IMG/VR virus record: IMGVR_UViG_3300022930_000003
Length of the DNA: 52,757 nucleotides
DNA from: a virus
Strand: one strand, 5' to 3'
This document shows positions 16,115 to 18,477 of this stretch, piece by piece; position 1 is the first letter of the stretch, and each line of letters starts with the position of its first letter. A model generated the notes under the pieces. That model was not told where the DNA came from and searched no databases. It saw nothing but the letters and a program-made list of their open reading frames with translations. A program made the position numbers and the translations under genes.

Positions 16115-16203
16115 AATCCCACCATGCTCAAAACTGCCATTACGCCATCAGCAATTGGATTGGCAAACAGGATCAGGCCAATGACGATGATGAGGTCTTT
16201 CAT
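16111..16203 (-). CDS. Possible 30-aa hydrophobic peptide
   Basis: MKDLIIVIGLILFANPIADGVMAVLSMVGL, with ATGA overlaps on both sides. Confidence 0.3.
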   Translation of the reverse strand: MKDLIIVIGLILFANPIADGVMAVLSMVGL

Positions 16204-16397
16204 CATTCCACCTCGACAAACAATGGGCGATTGTCACCCACTGCCATTCTGGTATCTCGCTCAATGCGATAAAAAATCCTGCCTTCGATTTCACTTAAAG
16301 AGCCATCTTCATTTTGAACAAACAAACGCTTTGGAAACCTGAGTGGATTGTGATTAGCGATTGGAACGATTTTTCTATTTGAATAAATATCGGTCAT
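16203..16397 (-). CDS. Hypothetical protein (64 aa)
   Basis: The first 22 codons of track ORF 16203..16463 are encoded by the T-arm and acceptor end of a tRNA-like gene, so I prefer the ATG at 16397 (MTDIYSNRK...). Confidence 0.5.
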   Translation of the reverse strand: MTDIYSNRKIVPIANHNPLRFPKRLFVQNEDGSLSEIEGRIFYRIERDTRMAVGDNRPLFVEVE

Positions 16398-16419
16398 ATA
16401 TTCTTTCGTGATGGGAAAG

Positions 16420-16507
16420 TGGTGCAAATAGTTGGACTTGAACCAACGATTCCACTGAGCCATATTCGGCCAAACAATGGCGGCTTAACCAACTTGCCTA
16501 TATTTGC
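16420..16507 (-). tRNA. tRNA-like gene with an expanded anticodon arm (Gln-UUG-like if 12 nt are removed)
   Basis: Acceptor GCAAATA/TATTTGC, D-arm GGC-AAGTTGGTTAA-GCC, T-arm GTTGG-TTCAAGT-CCAAC, discriminator A and an encoded CCA. The anticodon stem CCATT/AGTGG encloses 19 nt instead of 7. Confidence 0.45.
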
Positions 16508-16513
16508 TTTGAG

Positions 16514-16586
16514 TGCCACTGGAAGGAATTGAACCTCCGACCCACTGCTTACAAGGCAGTCGCTCTACCAACTGAGCTACAGGGGC
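16514..16586 (-). tRNA. tRNA-Thr (anticodon UGU)
   Basis: Hand-folded cloverleaf: GCCCCTG TA GCTC AGTTGGTA GAGC G ACTGC CTTGTAA GCAGT GGGTC GGAGG TTCAATT CCTTC CAGTGGC A. There is one C-U mismatch in the acceptor stem. Confidence 0.85.
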
Positions 16587-16796
16587 ATAATCCCGGCTTC
16601 CACGGTTAGCCGCCAACGTGGCGTCTGCAAAATCACTAGCGGCGAAATCGAAAGGTTTGCTAGCTTTTACTGCCGGTGTTACCCACTACCGGCTTGGGGG
16701 CCGAACAACCACGCTAAAAAAACACAACTATAAACATGTACCGCCTATTACAGCGCTGATCGTGTCGAGCGATTCAGATGTTTGTAGCTGCAAAAC

Positions 16797-16824
16797 TGGT
16801 TCGCAGAGCAGGATTTTAACCTGC
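16797..16824 (-). pseudogene. Degenerate tRNA 3' fragment (T-arm, acceptor 3' strand and ACCA)
   Basis: The minus strand reads GCAGG-TTAAAAT-CCTGC TCTGCGA A CCA. I could find no matching 5' acceptor strand or anticodon arm upstream. Confidence 0.35.
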
Positions 16825-16922
16825 ATGTCCCGACTTCTTTTCATCATGGATTCATCAATCGTCATTGATTACTACCAATCTGGTACGCCGATTCCTTTGT
16901 CTTTTAAGGTATCTGAGAACTC

Positions 16923-16999
16923 TGGTACGCCCAACAGGAATTGAACCTGTAACCGCCGAATTATGAGTTCGGAGCACTAACCAATTGTGCTATAGGCGC
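16923..16999 (-). tRNA. tRNA with anticodon CAU (Met or Ile2-type)
   Basis: Hand-folded cloverleaf: GCGCCTA TA GCAC AATTGGTTA GTGC T CCGAA CTCATAA TTCGG CGGTT ACAGG TTCAATT CCTGT TGGGCGT A CCA. The acceptor stem has two G-U pairs. Confidence 0.85.
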
Positions 17000-17951
17000 A
17001 AAAAAACACAAGGATGATGACTGCACTACTGACTAGAATGTCGTTATCACACTCAATGCCCAGCAATCACCATCCGTGTGCCGCCTCTTGCGAAGCGGTA
17101 ACGGTGGTCTTTGCCAACTGTCAAGGGGCCACTACTCATAGCCTTAACCACCCCCAGGGCGTACTCTTTTTGCCACTGTAATCCAGTGACCGTCTTTCCG
17201 GTCTGCCACCGCCCCGAATAAGGCATCGTTTAGATTTGATCACTACAAGCTGCCAAGGCTTGCTGCGGAATTTAATGCCTAAAACACGCCACGCAATCGG
17301 GTTTTGCCTAAGCTGTCCCAATCTAGCCAAACTATGCGCGAAACATGCGGCGCTCCATGTTCTCTCGTCACTACTACTGTTTCTTAGGTGGCCGGAGATG
17401 ATCCCGGCTTGATTGTAAGTGGCGCAACCAACATCAGCGTTAAAGGTAAGACCGTTGCGCGGCTATATTCCTTTATTCCACTTGCGCATCATCACTGCGC
17501 ATTCACCTAACGACTGCTGATTCAGGTTGAGCACGTCCACAGCAAAATGTATGGAATTCGGCGTTAGTATCAGCATGCGTTAGGTGACTGGTTAAGCCAG
17601 TCAGGCTACTCAATTTATTCGGCAAACACCCACTGAGCTAGGCGCTGAAAATTTCCCCTGTTGGCGCAAGGATAACTGCCTTATTAGCTGAAAACGAAAC
17701 ACTATGCAGGGAGTCCTTGCCTACCCATCGGCCATGCCGTCAGCTTGTTAGCTATTCGGGCTTACAGGGCGGAGCGGTAATTCTGTCGCACTTTGCAGGG
17801 AGTGTTTCGCTTCCATGTGTAGAACTATATCACCAACCAACCTCATCTACACCAAACTATTTTTCTATCGATACTTCTATGTCGATAGGCATTTCAAACG
17901 TGCGGCGTGGCCTGATCCAAAGCCACAGGAGGATAAGCCATGCCCACATGC
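17000..17951. ncRNA. ORF-free, hairpin-dense region; candidate large structured ncRNA(s), class and strand undetermined
   Basis: About 950 nt contain only short Arg/Ser/Pro-rich ORFs. Several perfect or near-perfect local helices are visible: 17070-17107, 17174-17188, 17221-17226/17275-17280, 17246-17262, 17391-17408, 17484-17500 and 17585-17603. Confidence 0.35.
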
Positions 17952-18254
17952 TTAATCCGCCGTTACATCGACCGTGATAGCCGATGGTGCGTCATACATT
18001 TGCTCCACGTTGCCATCCACGGTGAAATTAGCCGTGATAACTCCACCAAGCTCAGCACCAGACGAGTCCAGACGTTGCGCAGTCACGGTGTACTGACCAT
18101 CGTCAATGCGCTCGAATACGGCCTCTTTGCCGGTTACCTCTTCAAAGTCCAGAACCTCACCGCCTTGCAGCAGTGAAATGCGCAGCTTGCCAGGGGTACG
18201 GCCAGTTGGCAGGGCGACGGAAGTGGTGGCGATTTTTACAGTTACTTTGGACAT
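17952..18254 (-). CDS. Hypothetical beta-rich protein (100 aa)
   Basis: AAGGAGA RBS. The T/V-rich sequence suggests an Ig-like fold, but that is only a guess. Confidence 0.6.
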   Translation of the reverse strand: MSKVTVKIATTSVALPTGRTPGKLRISLLQGGEVLDFEEVTGKEAVFERIDDGQYTVTAQRLDSSGAELGGVITANFTVDGNVEQMYDAPSAITVDVTAD

Positions 18255-18315
18255 GATGTCTCCTTAAAGAAAACACAATGTTACATCACGTCTCTACCCT
18301 GCGCGCCACAATATT

Positions 18316-18477
18316 TTATCGGTTTGTCAGCTTAACAACTGCATCCATGATCGGCACATTCTGATCGTACATGTAGCGTGCCGCATCACGATCCAGGCGT
18401 TGACCAGCCTTCTCAATCAACACTTCATACCAGACCTTAAACCGCTGGCGGTCTTCAAGGGCTTCGAGGGGATTCAT
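18316..18477 (-). CDS. Possible 53-aa ORF
   Basis: MNPLEALEDRQRFKVWYEVLIEKAGQRL...; below the track cutoff. Confidence 0.4.
   Translation of the reverse strand: MNPLEALEDRQRFKVWYEVLIEKAGQRLDRDAARYMYDQNVPIMDAVVKLTNR

Follow-up and report, generated by a model that had tools for sequence, protein, structure and literature searches.

Long gene-free stretches beside the tRNA genes of phages are usually left blank in annotation. The tRNA region of phage T4 yields stable RNAs (species 1 and 2, rnaC/rnaD), small structured RNAs that are cotranscribed and processed with the tRNA cluster and that are not known as widespread across phage families. In lambdoid phages, the late leader has the order pR', qut, 6S RNA, tR', and, before the holin gene, leader. 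The RNAs GOLLD and ROOL occur close to phage tRNA islands, and GOLLD is more than 800 nt long (PMC12286853). Here we analyze the stretch from position 16587 to 17951 of IMG/VR virus record IMGVR_UViG_3300022930_000003, beside a cluster of tRNA genes; "the window" denotes the whole 52,757-nt stretch of DNA, which is almost the entire 52,771-bp metagenomic phage contig (ENA ERZ27228638). The region is non-coding, its modules are conserved and covary, and one of them, an element with a cloverleaf layout that we call X, is a member of a family widespread among phages. X and a second element, a hairpin with a GAAAGA loop, keep the strand of the neighboring tRNAs and genes, and phage HK620 carries X in its late leader. 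We lean toward reading minus-strand positions 17856 to 16420 as a transcribed non-coding leader and tRNA island of separate RNA modules at the head of the late operon.

Structure and covariation of X

Relatives were fetched by a protein search for TerL homologues, of which there are many, and by contig look-ups and are designated by locus numbers. TerL identity to the window was 87% in L169, 86% in L176, 84% in L171, 83% in L173, 82% in L177, 75% in L179, 74% in L175, and 59% in L002; of the relatives whose contig includes this region, L169 is the closest. Scanning IMG/VR and JGI metagenomes with TerL yielded one useful relative only (L002/L003) and a short contig. With the region itself as query, nhmmer against the TerL loci found only weak matches, and blastn against GenBank phages returned tRNA matches only.

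Pairwise comparison of the relatives' gaps exposed X as a module common to the window (17604-17383), L002, L173, L177, and L179 (Table 1). Across the family, helix P1 consists of an invariant GGUG/CACC and three freely varying pairs and is followed by a 2-nt AA linker. P2 (GCGCA, loop GGCUGA, UGCGC) and an arm of variable length (P3, 17 to 155 nt) precede P4 (GCCGG, 9-nt loop, CCGGC), which leads without a break into the 3' side of P1. The loops of P2 and P4 are mutually complementary (GCUGA/UCAGC).

Covariation was assessed in an alignment of 55 distinct members from which the variable arm had been removed. Pairing was kept in 97.1% of cells, and both-sided changes were present in 12 of 23 pairs (88 cells); none of 500 shuffles reached any of five measures, and slid controls were 27 to 51% paired. 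P1 is 7 bp long, with the seventh pair formed in 52 of 55 members and an eighth in 33. The loop-loop helix, which played no part in member selection, was 97% paired and had double-sided changes at three positions. As a control for selection, members were also taken by a sequence pattern alone, and the full architecture was then found in 83 of 113 distinct matches, versus 2.3 after the downstream sequence was shuffled.

The window holds a somewhat divergent member of this family. Covariance model R1, built from 21 other members with the window sequence excluded, matched 17383-17511 on the minus strand at full length (model positions 1-100; 38.9 bits, E 8.8e-8). R1 scored 80.4 bits on HK620, 59.1 on L179, 54.1 on L177, 41.2 on L002, and 23.7 on L173, and it had no match on L169, L171, L175, or L176. 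The window has P1 (GGUG plus three variable pairs), P2, P4, and complementary P2/P4 loops; its loops are one compensated pair away from the canonical sequences, and those of L173 read GCGAU/AUCGC. Three of the local helices that the initial annotation had picked out (TGACTGG/CCAGTCA, GCGCA/TGCGC, and GCCGG/CCGGC) proved to be conserved, covarying helices of X, namely, hairpin a, P2, and P4.

Hairpin a and the long stem P0, on the 5' side of the core, show compensatory changes in L002, L273, and L277. The hairpin a stem is GACUCU/AGAGUC in L002 and GGCCGG/CCGGCC in L273 and L277, with the loop CKUAA kept; P0 in L002 (CACUACACG/CGUGUGGUG) differs by two compensatory pairs. The P0 internal loop, ACG-CAU...AGU-CGU, recurs in L173, L184, L208, L273, L295, and L298, and the P0 stem with this loop together with hairpin a is found in the window, L002, L173, L273, L277, L184, L208, L295, and L298. 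Enterobacterial members of X have another type of P0. In the window, P0 belongs to the minimum free energy (MFE) fold of 17610-17380 (z score, −3.3).

X shares with tRNA-like RNAs (tRNA, the tRNA-like domain of YrlA, mascRNA, and the tRNA-like structures of plant viruses) a four-helix cloverleaf connectivity in which a 7-bp closing helix runs into a 5-bp arm, with a 2-nt linker and a loop-loop "elbow." P1 stacks on the 5-bp P4 without a linker, the 2-nt linker follows, and the two loops make contact. As modeled, X thus has the connectivity of tRNA and a 12-bp acceptor/T-arm length, a likeness of topology and not of homology. Unlike those RNAs, X is not recognized by the tRNA, YrlA, or mascRNA models and has no general CCA end; its elbow is a 5-bp Watson-Crick loop-loop helix, its loops are 6 to 7 and 8 to 10 nt long, and the arm at the "anticodon" position has the wide length range given above.

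Two further observations concern the surroundings of X. In L269, L272, L283, and L285, a second, divergent X-like paralogue lies 260 to 630 nt downstream of the first copy and has the same P1 with different hairpins (AAUGCGGC.AGCGC ... CCGGGAGGCACCCGG). In L295, an abiF RNA (RF03085, 55 bits, above the gathering score) lies at 1269-1305, immediately 3' of the X element; an identity of P4 with abiF RNA was rejected, as the abiF match is a separate terminator-like hairpin downstream.

Distribution and genomic context of X

The sequence pattern derived from the most conserved X hairpin (GGTGAATGCGNAG N3-6 GATGCG) matched at least 120 IMG/VR loci. It also had at least 120 matches in a collection of species genomes, where by our own estimate about 70 chance matches were expected and the full architecture was present in 31 of the 120 listed. 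The genera among the matches listed were Kosakonia, Klebsiella, Pantoea, Rahnella, Kluyvera, Pseudomonas, Achromobacter, Pandoraea, Comamonas, Rhodoferax, Nitrosomonas, Pseudoxanthomonas, and Pelagibacterium, and X occurs in phages and prophages of Alpha-, Beta-, and Gammaproteobacteria. The canonical copy from HK620 matched 116 GenBank phages, including HK620, HK633, Klebsiella T1-like phages, N4-like IME11, and the Vi1-like phages P01 and cp21, and it had matches in 108 of 5,426 complete Escherichia coli genomes. No non-coding RNA annotation lay under X among the matches listed, which were labeled "none," had no annotation, or overlapped a hypothetical-protein or tRNA call. X is absent from Rfam 15, and a literature search by sequence string and topic, with incomplete coverage, found no description of it.

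HK620 has X upstream of the holin gene, in the interval from pR'/qut to the late terminator tQ. The X copy of a Klebsiella T1-like phage ends 8 nt before a tRNA-Arg, and in N4-like IME11 and Vi1-like P01, X is located within unannotated, open reading frame (ORF)-free stretches of 2 to 3 kb, which in P01 also carry STnc100 and a tRNA-Met. Among 83 loci examined, the nearest tRNA was on the same strand as X in 15 of the 17 that bear tRNAs, and it followed X by 5 to 45 nt in 6. Terminator-like sites within 400 nt of X were counted at the 71 loci with enough flanking sequence: on the same strand they were present upstream in 17 and downstream in 15, compared with 0 and 4 on the opposite strand. 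X alone, in a form of about 100 nt, adjoins tRNAs or terminators in unrelated phages. In L301 (Klebsiella phage vB_Kpn_ZCKp20p; 2689-3819), a TnpB-family gene is found about 500 nt from a pair of X and tRNA-Arg.

The gene-free stretch resembles a lambdoid late leader as a putatively promoter-proximal, terminator-bounded non-coding stretch at the head of the late genes, the position at which HK620 carries canonical X. It differs in that the window leader is longer and contains tRNAs and in that a Q homologue or qut was not identified in the window. Phage lambda itself (L425, 44,790-44,940) has the HK620-type P0 stem directly after tR', followed by a core whose closing helix is compensated (UUGUGCUG/CAGCACAA) and whose internal hairpins differ. 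Lambda was rejected as an X member; P0 is shared, but the core fails R1 (10.6 bits, E 0.73).

The tRNA-like dimensions of X (a 7-plus-5-bp stack, a 2-nt linker, and paired elbow loops) and its co-location and co-orientation with tRNAs raise the question of whether X, perhaps with the tRNA-like remnants described below, acts in trans as a decoy that mimics tRNA against host tRNA-targeting nucleases or tRNA-binding factors, complementing the phage tRNAs. Phage tRNAs are reported to rescue infection from tRNA cleavage by a retron and by PARIS (PMC11555353, PMC10802454), which counts for a decoy. So do the sporadic occurrence of X among close relatives, as with accessory counter-defense genes, and its presence in virulent and temperate phages alike. 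However, X has no equivalent of an anticodon loop, the arm at that place varies in length and sequence, and no linked defense or counter-defense gene was seen. We regard the decoy role as rather unlikely as the primary explanation; it is compatible with a leader and does not exclude one.

A GAAAGA-loop hairpin associated with X

The exact 21-mer of the GAAAGA-loop hairpin occurs at six IMG/VR loci on five contigs. In syntenic relatives, the loop and the 5' UGRCA are kept and the stem changes (GGCUG/CAGUC in L169, CCAGG/CCUGG in L177); second copies of the hairpin have the stems CUGG/CCAG (L087) and CUCG/CGGG. Because the loop is fixed and the arms covary, the element is best understood as a stem-loop read via its loop and not as a duplex DNA site. 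At X loci, 13 copies with the GRCA flank were found on the strand of X and 0 on the opposite strand; the distance to X is at most 600 nt for 10 copies, and at least one copy is immediately upstream.

In Ralstonia phages of the genus Bakolyvirus (Adzire), three copies in the same orientation occupy a 540-nt leader that follows a TTGACA-17-TTTAAT promoter and precedes the early operon. In L082, L084, and Adzire, the hairpin precedes start codons by 24 to 38 nt and follows sigma-70-like promoters; in L082, L087, and Adzire, the promoters that it follows are of the TTGACA type. By analogy, these features suggest boxB of lambdoid N antitermination (boxB/nut) as the nearest counterpart: the hairpin is short (5 bp), its GNRA-like loop is conserved and rich in purines, and its 5' flank is fixed; it stands in promoter-proximal leaders, sometimes in several copies, and is apparently read via its loop. 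Unlike boxB, it has a hexaloop and is also found in tRNA islands, and no N-like protein was identified with it. The window ORFs shared with other hairpin-bearing loci, most of which are partial, encode unrelated enzymes only.

Other identities were considered. That the 23-mer is an attP or host core sequence was rejected on the basis of 0 exact matches in 185,579 species genomes and the several copies in one Adzire leader. A hammerhead, a sarcin-ricin loop, a CsrA site, and a type I-F CRISPR repeat were dropped by eye for the hairpin together with the adjacent block B (see below), as the defining core was missing in each case. One contig with the hairpin, L087, carries a Betaproteobacteria-1 RNA (RF02932, 64.7 bits) at 519-637 on the minus strand, which hints at a betaproteobacterial host.

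An origin or packaging-related DNA element had been offered initially as an alternative to an RNA. The position of the region, about 1.1 to 2.4 kb upstream of the TerS start (15448), would suit a replication origin, a pac or cos site, or a recombination hotspot upstream of the terminase genes, and the three Adzire copies recall iterons. Against this, the covarying arms with a fixed loop and 5' flank are the reverse of what a dimeric DNA-binding site would show; the strand bias with genes and tRNAs is strict (13 versus 0); no inflection of GC skew was found; and the lambdoid late leader, where X is found, is distant from cos or pac. A DNA-level element is therefore disfavored, and we consider it highly improbable.

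Coding content, folding, and known RNA families

Genes around the gene-free stretch are all on the minus strand, and the stretch lies between early/replication genes and a block that comprises, in order downstream of tRNA-Pro, small ORFs, a VRR-NUC-like gene, TerS (15448-15020), and TerL (14505-13126). The original gene caller made zero calls from the 100-amino-acid (aa) gene to a 30-aa ORF at 16203. No relatives of the 100-aa protein were found in IMG/VR. No ORF longer than 108 aa overlaps 16587-17951, and none on the gene strand exceeds 64 aa. The initial annotation had described the whole 1.36 kb as ORF-free apart from three short ORFs. These three exist, and no conserved ORF was detected on the minus strand in 17856-17000 or 16922-16587, and none of the long ORFs of 16587-17951 is kept in relatives; the first 95 nt, however, are coding. 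ORF 17949-17857 has a 34-aa homologue in L169 (1754-1858; MWAWLLLILAWWRSRRESKVELPIEIEVAINKYD) with conservative substitutions and about 74% identity at the DNA level, as in the neighboring gene, and its conservation places it outside the RNA region.

Every helix listed in that annotation is present at the coordinates given for it. Hairpin density is weak evidence by itself, since the 952-nt stretch as a whole had MFE z scores of only −2.0 (minus strand) and −2.3 (plus strand; 20 shuffles each), but two subregions were more stable, 17610-17380 (z score as given above) and 17120-16995 (z score, −3.9), with 0 of 200 shuffles equally stable in each case. The case for the region rests on conservation and not on hairpin density. 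A repeated 10-mer that had also been pointed out is at about the chance level; by our own estimate, approximately 0.9 exact 10-mer repeats are expected in 1.36 kb.

The window was compared with Rfam 15 by cmscan, in full at the gathering score and over 16300-18350 on both strands at E ≤ 10. Only the three tRNAs and chance-level matches were found, and GOLLD (RF01998), ROOL (RF03087), group I/II introns, transfer-messenger RNA (tmRNA), YrlA, and small ribozymes were therefore not encountered; the GOLLD and ROOL models had no match in the window on either strand. YrlA/Y RNA-like (RF02553) gave only a 17.6-bit match overlapping tRNA-Thr, compared with a gathering score of 69. The tRNA model (RF00005) had no match at E ≤ 10 in 17000-17951, X included, and relaxed ARAGORN runs gave only implausible intron-containing calls. 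On the relatives and canonical X loci, Rfam found tRNAs, one abiF hairpin, and weak tmRNA-like matches in L002.

The tRNAs that the initial annotation had described as seeding the region were confirmed, with three (Met, Thr, and Pro) on the minus strand; a 336-nt spacer (16922-16587) separates tRNA-Met from tRNA-Thr. The tRNA-Pro is atypical in that the ARAGORN fit needs a 10-nt insert after position 37, and it scored about 50 bits, compared with 68 to 71 for its neighbors.

Gain, loss, and reordering of modules

The window and L169 share about 74% identity in coding DNA, and several non-coding blocks are more similar (80 to 93%). In addition to M1 (Table 1), these are 17227-17203 (92% identical to L169 2226-2251), 17111-17063 (80%, L169 2401-2451), and 16706-16585 (92.7% over 124 nt, L169 2572-2693). 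The remainder of the region does not align with L169, and much of it aligns with no relative. In the lineage-specific blocks (M1, block B, M4, and M5), differences from relatives are in loops or are compensatory. M1 has one compensatory pair, GC to AU, and M4 has one in each stem. In M5, the differences from L169 are all in loops or are C-G to U-G changes, and the helices CGCCA/TGGCG (16611-16623) and CCGGT/ACCGG (16673-16692) noted initially fall inside its conserved block. A 19-mer from M5 was absent from IMG/VR.

Block B is 75% identical to L002 6265-6329, with a second shared piece, and its hairpin shows an ACGUG/CACGU to ACAUG/CAUGU change; in IMG/VR, it was found in L002-type contigs only. 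The AGGCAU/AUGCCU hairpin has its partner strand downstream instead in L169. M4 ends in a putative terminator, a 13-bp stem extended by wobble pairs and then U7, and the corresponding tail in L169 is U/G rich; a consensus terminator scan made no call here because of the large internal loop. The promoter-like box upstream of M1 predicts a non-coding transcript start near 17817; a promoter scan tool flagged another site, TCGACA-18-AATAGT at 17885-17856.

TABLE 1 Features of the window around the gene-free stretch, in order along the minus strand
Feature	Position	Strand	Remarks
100-aa gene	18254-17952	−	First in gene order, before the gap
Small ORF, 30 aa, hydrophobic N terminus (MWAWLILLWLWIRPRR...)	17949-17857	−	Homologue in L169
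Extended −10 promoter-like box TGaTATAGT, predicted	17824-17832	−	Identical in L169 (GTGATATAGTTCT), flanks differ
M1, long irregular hairpin (AACACU...AGUGUU)	17689-17815	−	Block 17833-17690 about 93% identical in L169
tRNA 5'-half-like sequence (GCGCCTAGCTCAGTGGGT...), without 3' half	17605-17646 (piece 17629-17646)	−	Repeat families D3, D12
X hairpin a, UGACUGG-CUUAA-CCAGUCA	17585-17603	−	Stems changed in L002, L273, L277
X long stem P0, CACCUAACG-CAU-GCUGAU ... AUCAGC-AGU-CGUUAGGUG, variable tip	17504-17586	−	Inverted repeat I1
X core	17383-17511	−	Covariance model R1 match
X P1	17510-17504 with 17390-17384	−	UUAGGUG/CACCUAA, then AA linker
X P2	17500-17484	−	GCGCA/UGCGC
X P3, variable arm	17483-17411	−	
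X P4	17408-17391	−	GCCGG/CCGGC
X loop-loop pairing	17493-17489 with 17401-17397	−	GAUGA/UCAUC
Block B: CAGUAGUGACGAGAG, hairpin (AACAUG/CAUGUU), GGGACAG, AAAACCCGAUUGCGUGG	17290-17381	−	Shared with L002
AGGCAU/AUGCCU hairpin enclosing CAAGC/GCUUG, then conserved run GAUGCCUUAUUCGGGGCGGUGGCAG	17203-17280	−	17227-17203 kept in L169
GAAAGA-loop hairpin, UGGCA-GACCG-GAAAGA-CGGUC-AC	17186-17212	−	Exact 21-mer in IMG/VR; covarying stems
M4: hairpin with conserved loop UUCGCAAGAG (17098-17081), 13-bp stem (17075-17010), U7 (17006-17000)	17000-17111	−	Abuts tRNA-Met
tRNA-Met (CAU)	16999-16923	−	ARAGORN; Rfam tRNA, 68.3 bits
M5, predicted four-way junction ending exactly at tRNA-Thr 5' end	16587-16706	−	92.7% over 124 nt versus L169
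tRNA-Thr (UGU)	16586-16513	−	ARAGORN; Rfam tRNA, 70.7 bits
tRNA-Pro (UGG), atypical, 88 nt	16507-16420	−	ARAGORN; Rfam tRNA, 50.1 bits

The locus is plastic. In L169, the order is M1, GAAAGA hairpin, M4, a U-rich tract, M5, and a tRNA-like gene, without X. L002 has a 1.44-kb ORF-poor gap and tRNA island ahead of TerS with the GAAAGA hairpin, directly followed by block B, and then X, whereas the order in the window is X, block B, and hairpin. The gap in L176 is only about 420 nt. The number of tRNAs at the locus ranges from 0 to 7 in relatives (7 in L171, 3 in L002), and ARAGORN called none in L169, L173, or L175. The tRNA-like gene of L169 (2694-2818; GCGAGAG ... GCAGGTTCGATTCCTGC CTCTCGC), which ARAGORN misses, is 125 nt long and stands right after M5, at the position of tRNA-Thr in the window. 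A tRNA-like RNA at L002 6039-6158, likewise without an ARAGORN call, has acceptor ends, a canonical T arm, CCA, and an insert of about 70 nt with in-frame TAG TAG TAA; it matched Rfam tmRNA at 25.6 bits. In the closest relatives, L169 (6487-6663) and L170 (2627-2803), the neighbor of TerL is a 58-aa gene encoding a ribosome modulation factor domain (PF04957).

These comparisons bear on the initial proposal of one large structured RNA of the GOLLD or ROOL kind. The part of that proposal concerning a structured non-coding RNA beside tRNAs was borne out: the region is non-coding, lies within a tRNA island, and has conserved structure with compensatory changes. A single ornate RNA of about 0.8 kb (approximately 17817-17000), with the modules as its domains and perhaps multimerizing via loops, would also fit the distance of about 820 nt from the promoter-like box to U7, where the unit abuts tRNA-Met. 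In L169, the 5' and 3' modules are retained and the center is different, which recalls the conserved and variable halves of GOLLD, and the X loop-loop complementarity could be intermolecular. Like GOLLD and ROOL, the window region is non-coding, structured, borne by a phage beside a tRNA island, and a unit of about 0.8 kb (PMC12286853). It differs from them in consisting of separable modules whose presence and order vary, in having a conserved X core of about 90 to 130 nt plus a variable arm, and in lacking any match in sequence or structure; membership in either family finds no support in Rfam 15, where tRNA was the only family detected. X is absent from L169, L171, and L176, no conserved long-range pairing joins the modules, and the whole-region z score is only about −2. 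Because modules are gained, lost, and reordered in relatives and X occurs alone elsewhere, a fixed architecture is disfavored, and we judge a single GOLLD-like RNA to be quite unlikely.

Two orphan tRNA pieces lie in the region. At 16797-16824 (minus strand) there is a T arm with the 3' acceptor and ACCA (GCAGGTTAAAATCCTGC TCTGCGA ACCA) and no 5' half. The second is the 5'-half-like sequence upstream of X, which shares repeat families D3 and D12 with the 5' ends of the real tRNAs; it had no tRNA model match at E ≤ 10 and is not kept in L169. These pieces (16797-16824 and 17629-17646) could be relics or parts of unrecognized RNAs. They would suit a decaying tRNA gene array, composed of tRNA relics and neutral spacer with function limited to the three live tRNAs, as would the varying number of tRNAs in relatives and the extent of sequence that aligns with no relative. 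However, blocks exceed coding DNA in conservation (92.7% and about 93%), compensatory changes exist, and X maintains 97% pairing across phage families and bacterial classes. Decay is very unlikely to account for the region and is already contradicted in the case of X, the GAAAGA hairpin, M1, and M5.

Discussion

The reading that we favor, a transcribed leader and tRNA island of separate modules, has the following layout. A putative −10 box near 17830 would start a transcript through M1, X, block B, the GAAAGA hairpin, and M4 to the hairpin and U7 at 17000, followed by tRNA-Met, a remnant-like spacer, M5, tRNA-Thr, and tRNA-Pro. Acting in the manner of a lambdoid late leader, the structured RNA would end at the terminator unless the polymerase were made terminator resistant. 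The GAAAGA hairpin, as a protein recognition site of the boxB kind, could load the factor that confers such resistance. X may be handled by machinery that recognizes tRNAs and be cut out together with the real tRNAs, and the excised X might serve as a punctuation mark for processing or stabilization or persist as a stable tRNA mimic. The promoter and terminator, like processing by tRNA enzymes and the boxB-like role, are inferred from the features described above.

Several points weigh against this reading. The promoter and the terminator are predicted from sequence, and the terminator scan left M4 uncalled. We found neither an N- or Q-like protein nor one common to the hairpin-bearing phages. 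For the strand CGUUAGGUG, upstream P0 and downstream P1 are alternative pairing partners, and the energy model favors P0, so the cloverleaf may be one of two states; in this model, the alternative pairing could act as a switch. Admission to the covariation alignment required a P1 of 6 bp or more and a 5-bp P4, a filter that inflates the covariation of these two helices. Since the Rfam tRNA model misses X, "tRNA-shaped" refers to topology only. Finally, CCA occurs within 3 nt after P1 in 26 of 80 copies and is absent in the window; it is enriched and not general, and a CCA end was rejected as a general feature of X on this count.

We also entertain, tentatively but as a serious possibility, that X represents an undescribed, widespread class of tRNA-shaped phage RNA with a dedicated function and that the GAAAGA hairpin is a second new motif working with X. 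X would then, for example, mimic tRNA and so engage RNase P or immunity directed at tRNAs, or form a leader element switchable between P0 and P1.

In this stretch, two or more portable RNA motifs are under strong selection for structure. If functional, X would add a new class to the few known structured RNAs borne by phages, and it is experimentally tractable in HK620 in E. coli and in Klebsiella T1-like phages. The finding bears on why phages carry tRNA islands and on how late transcripts cross them.

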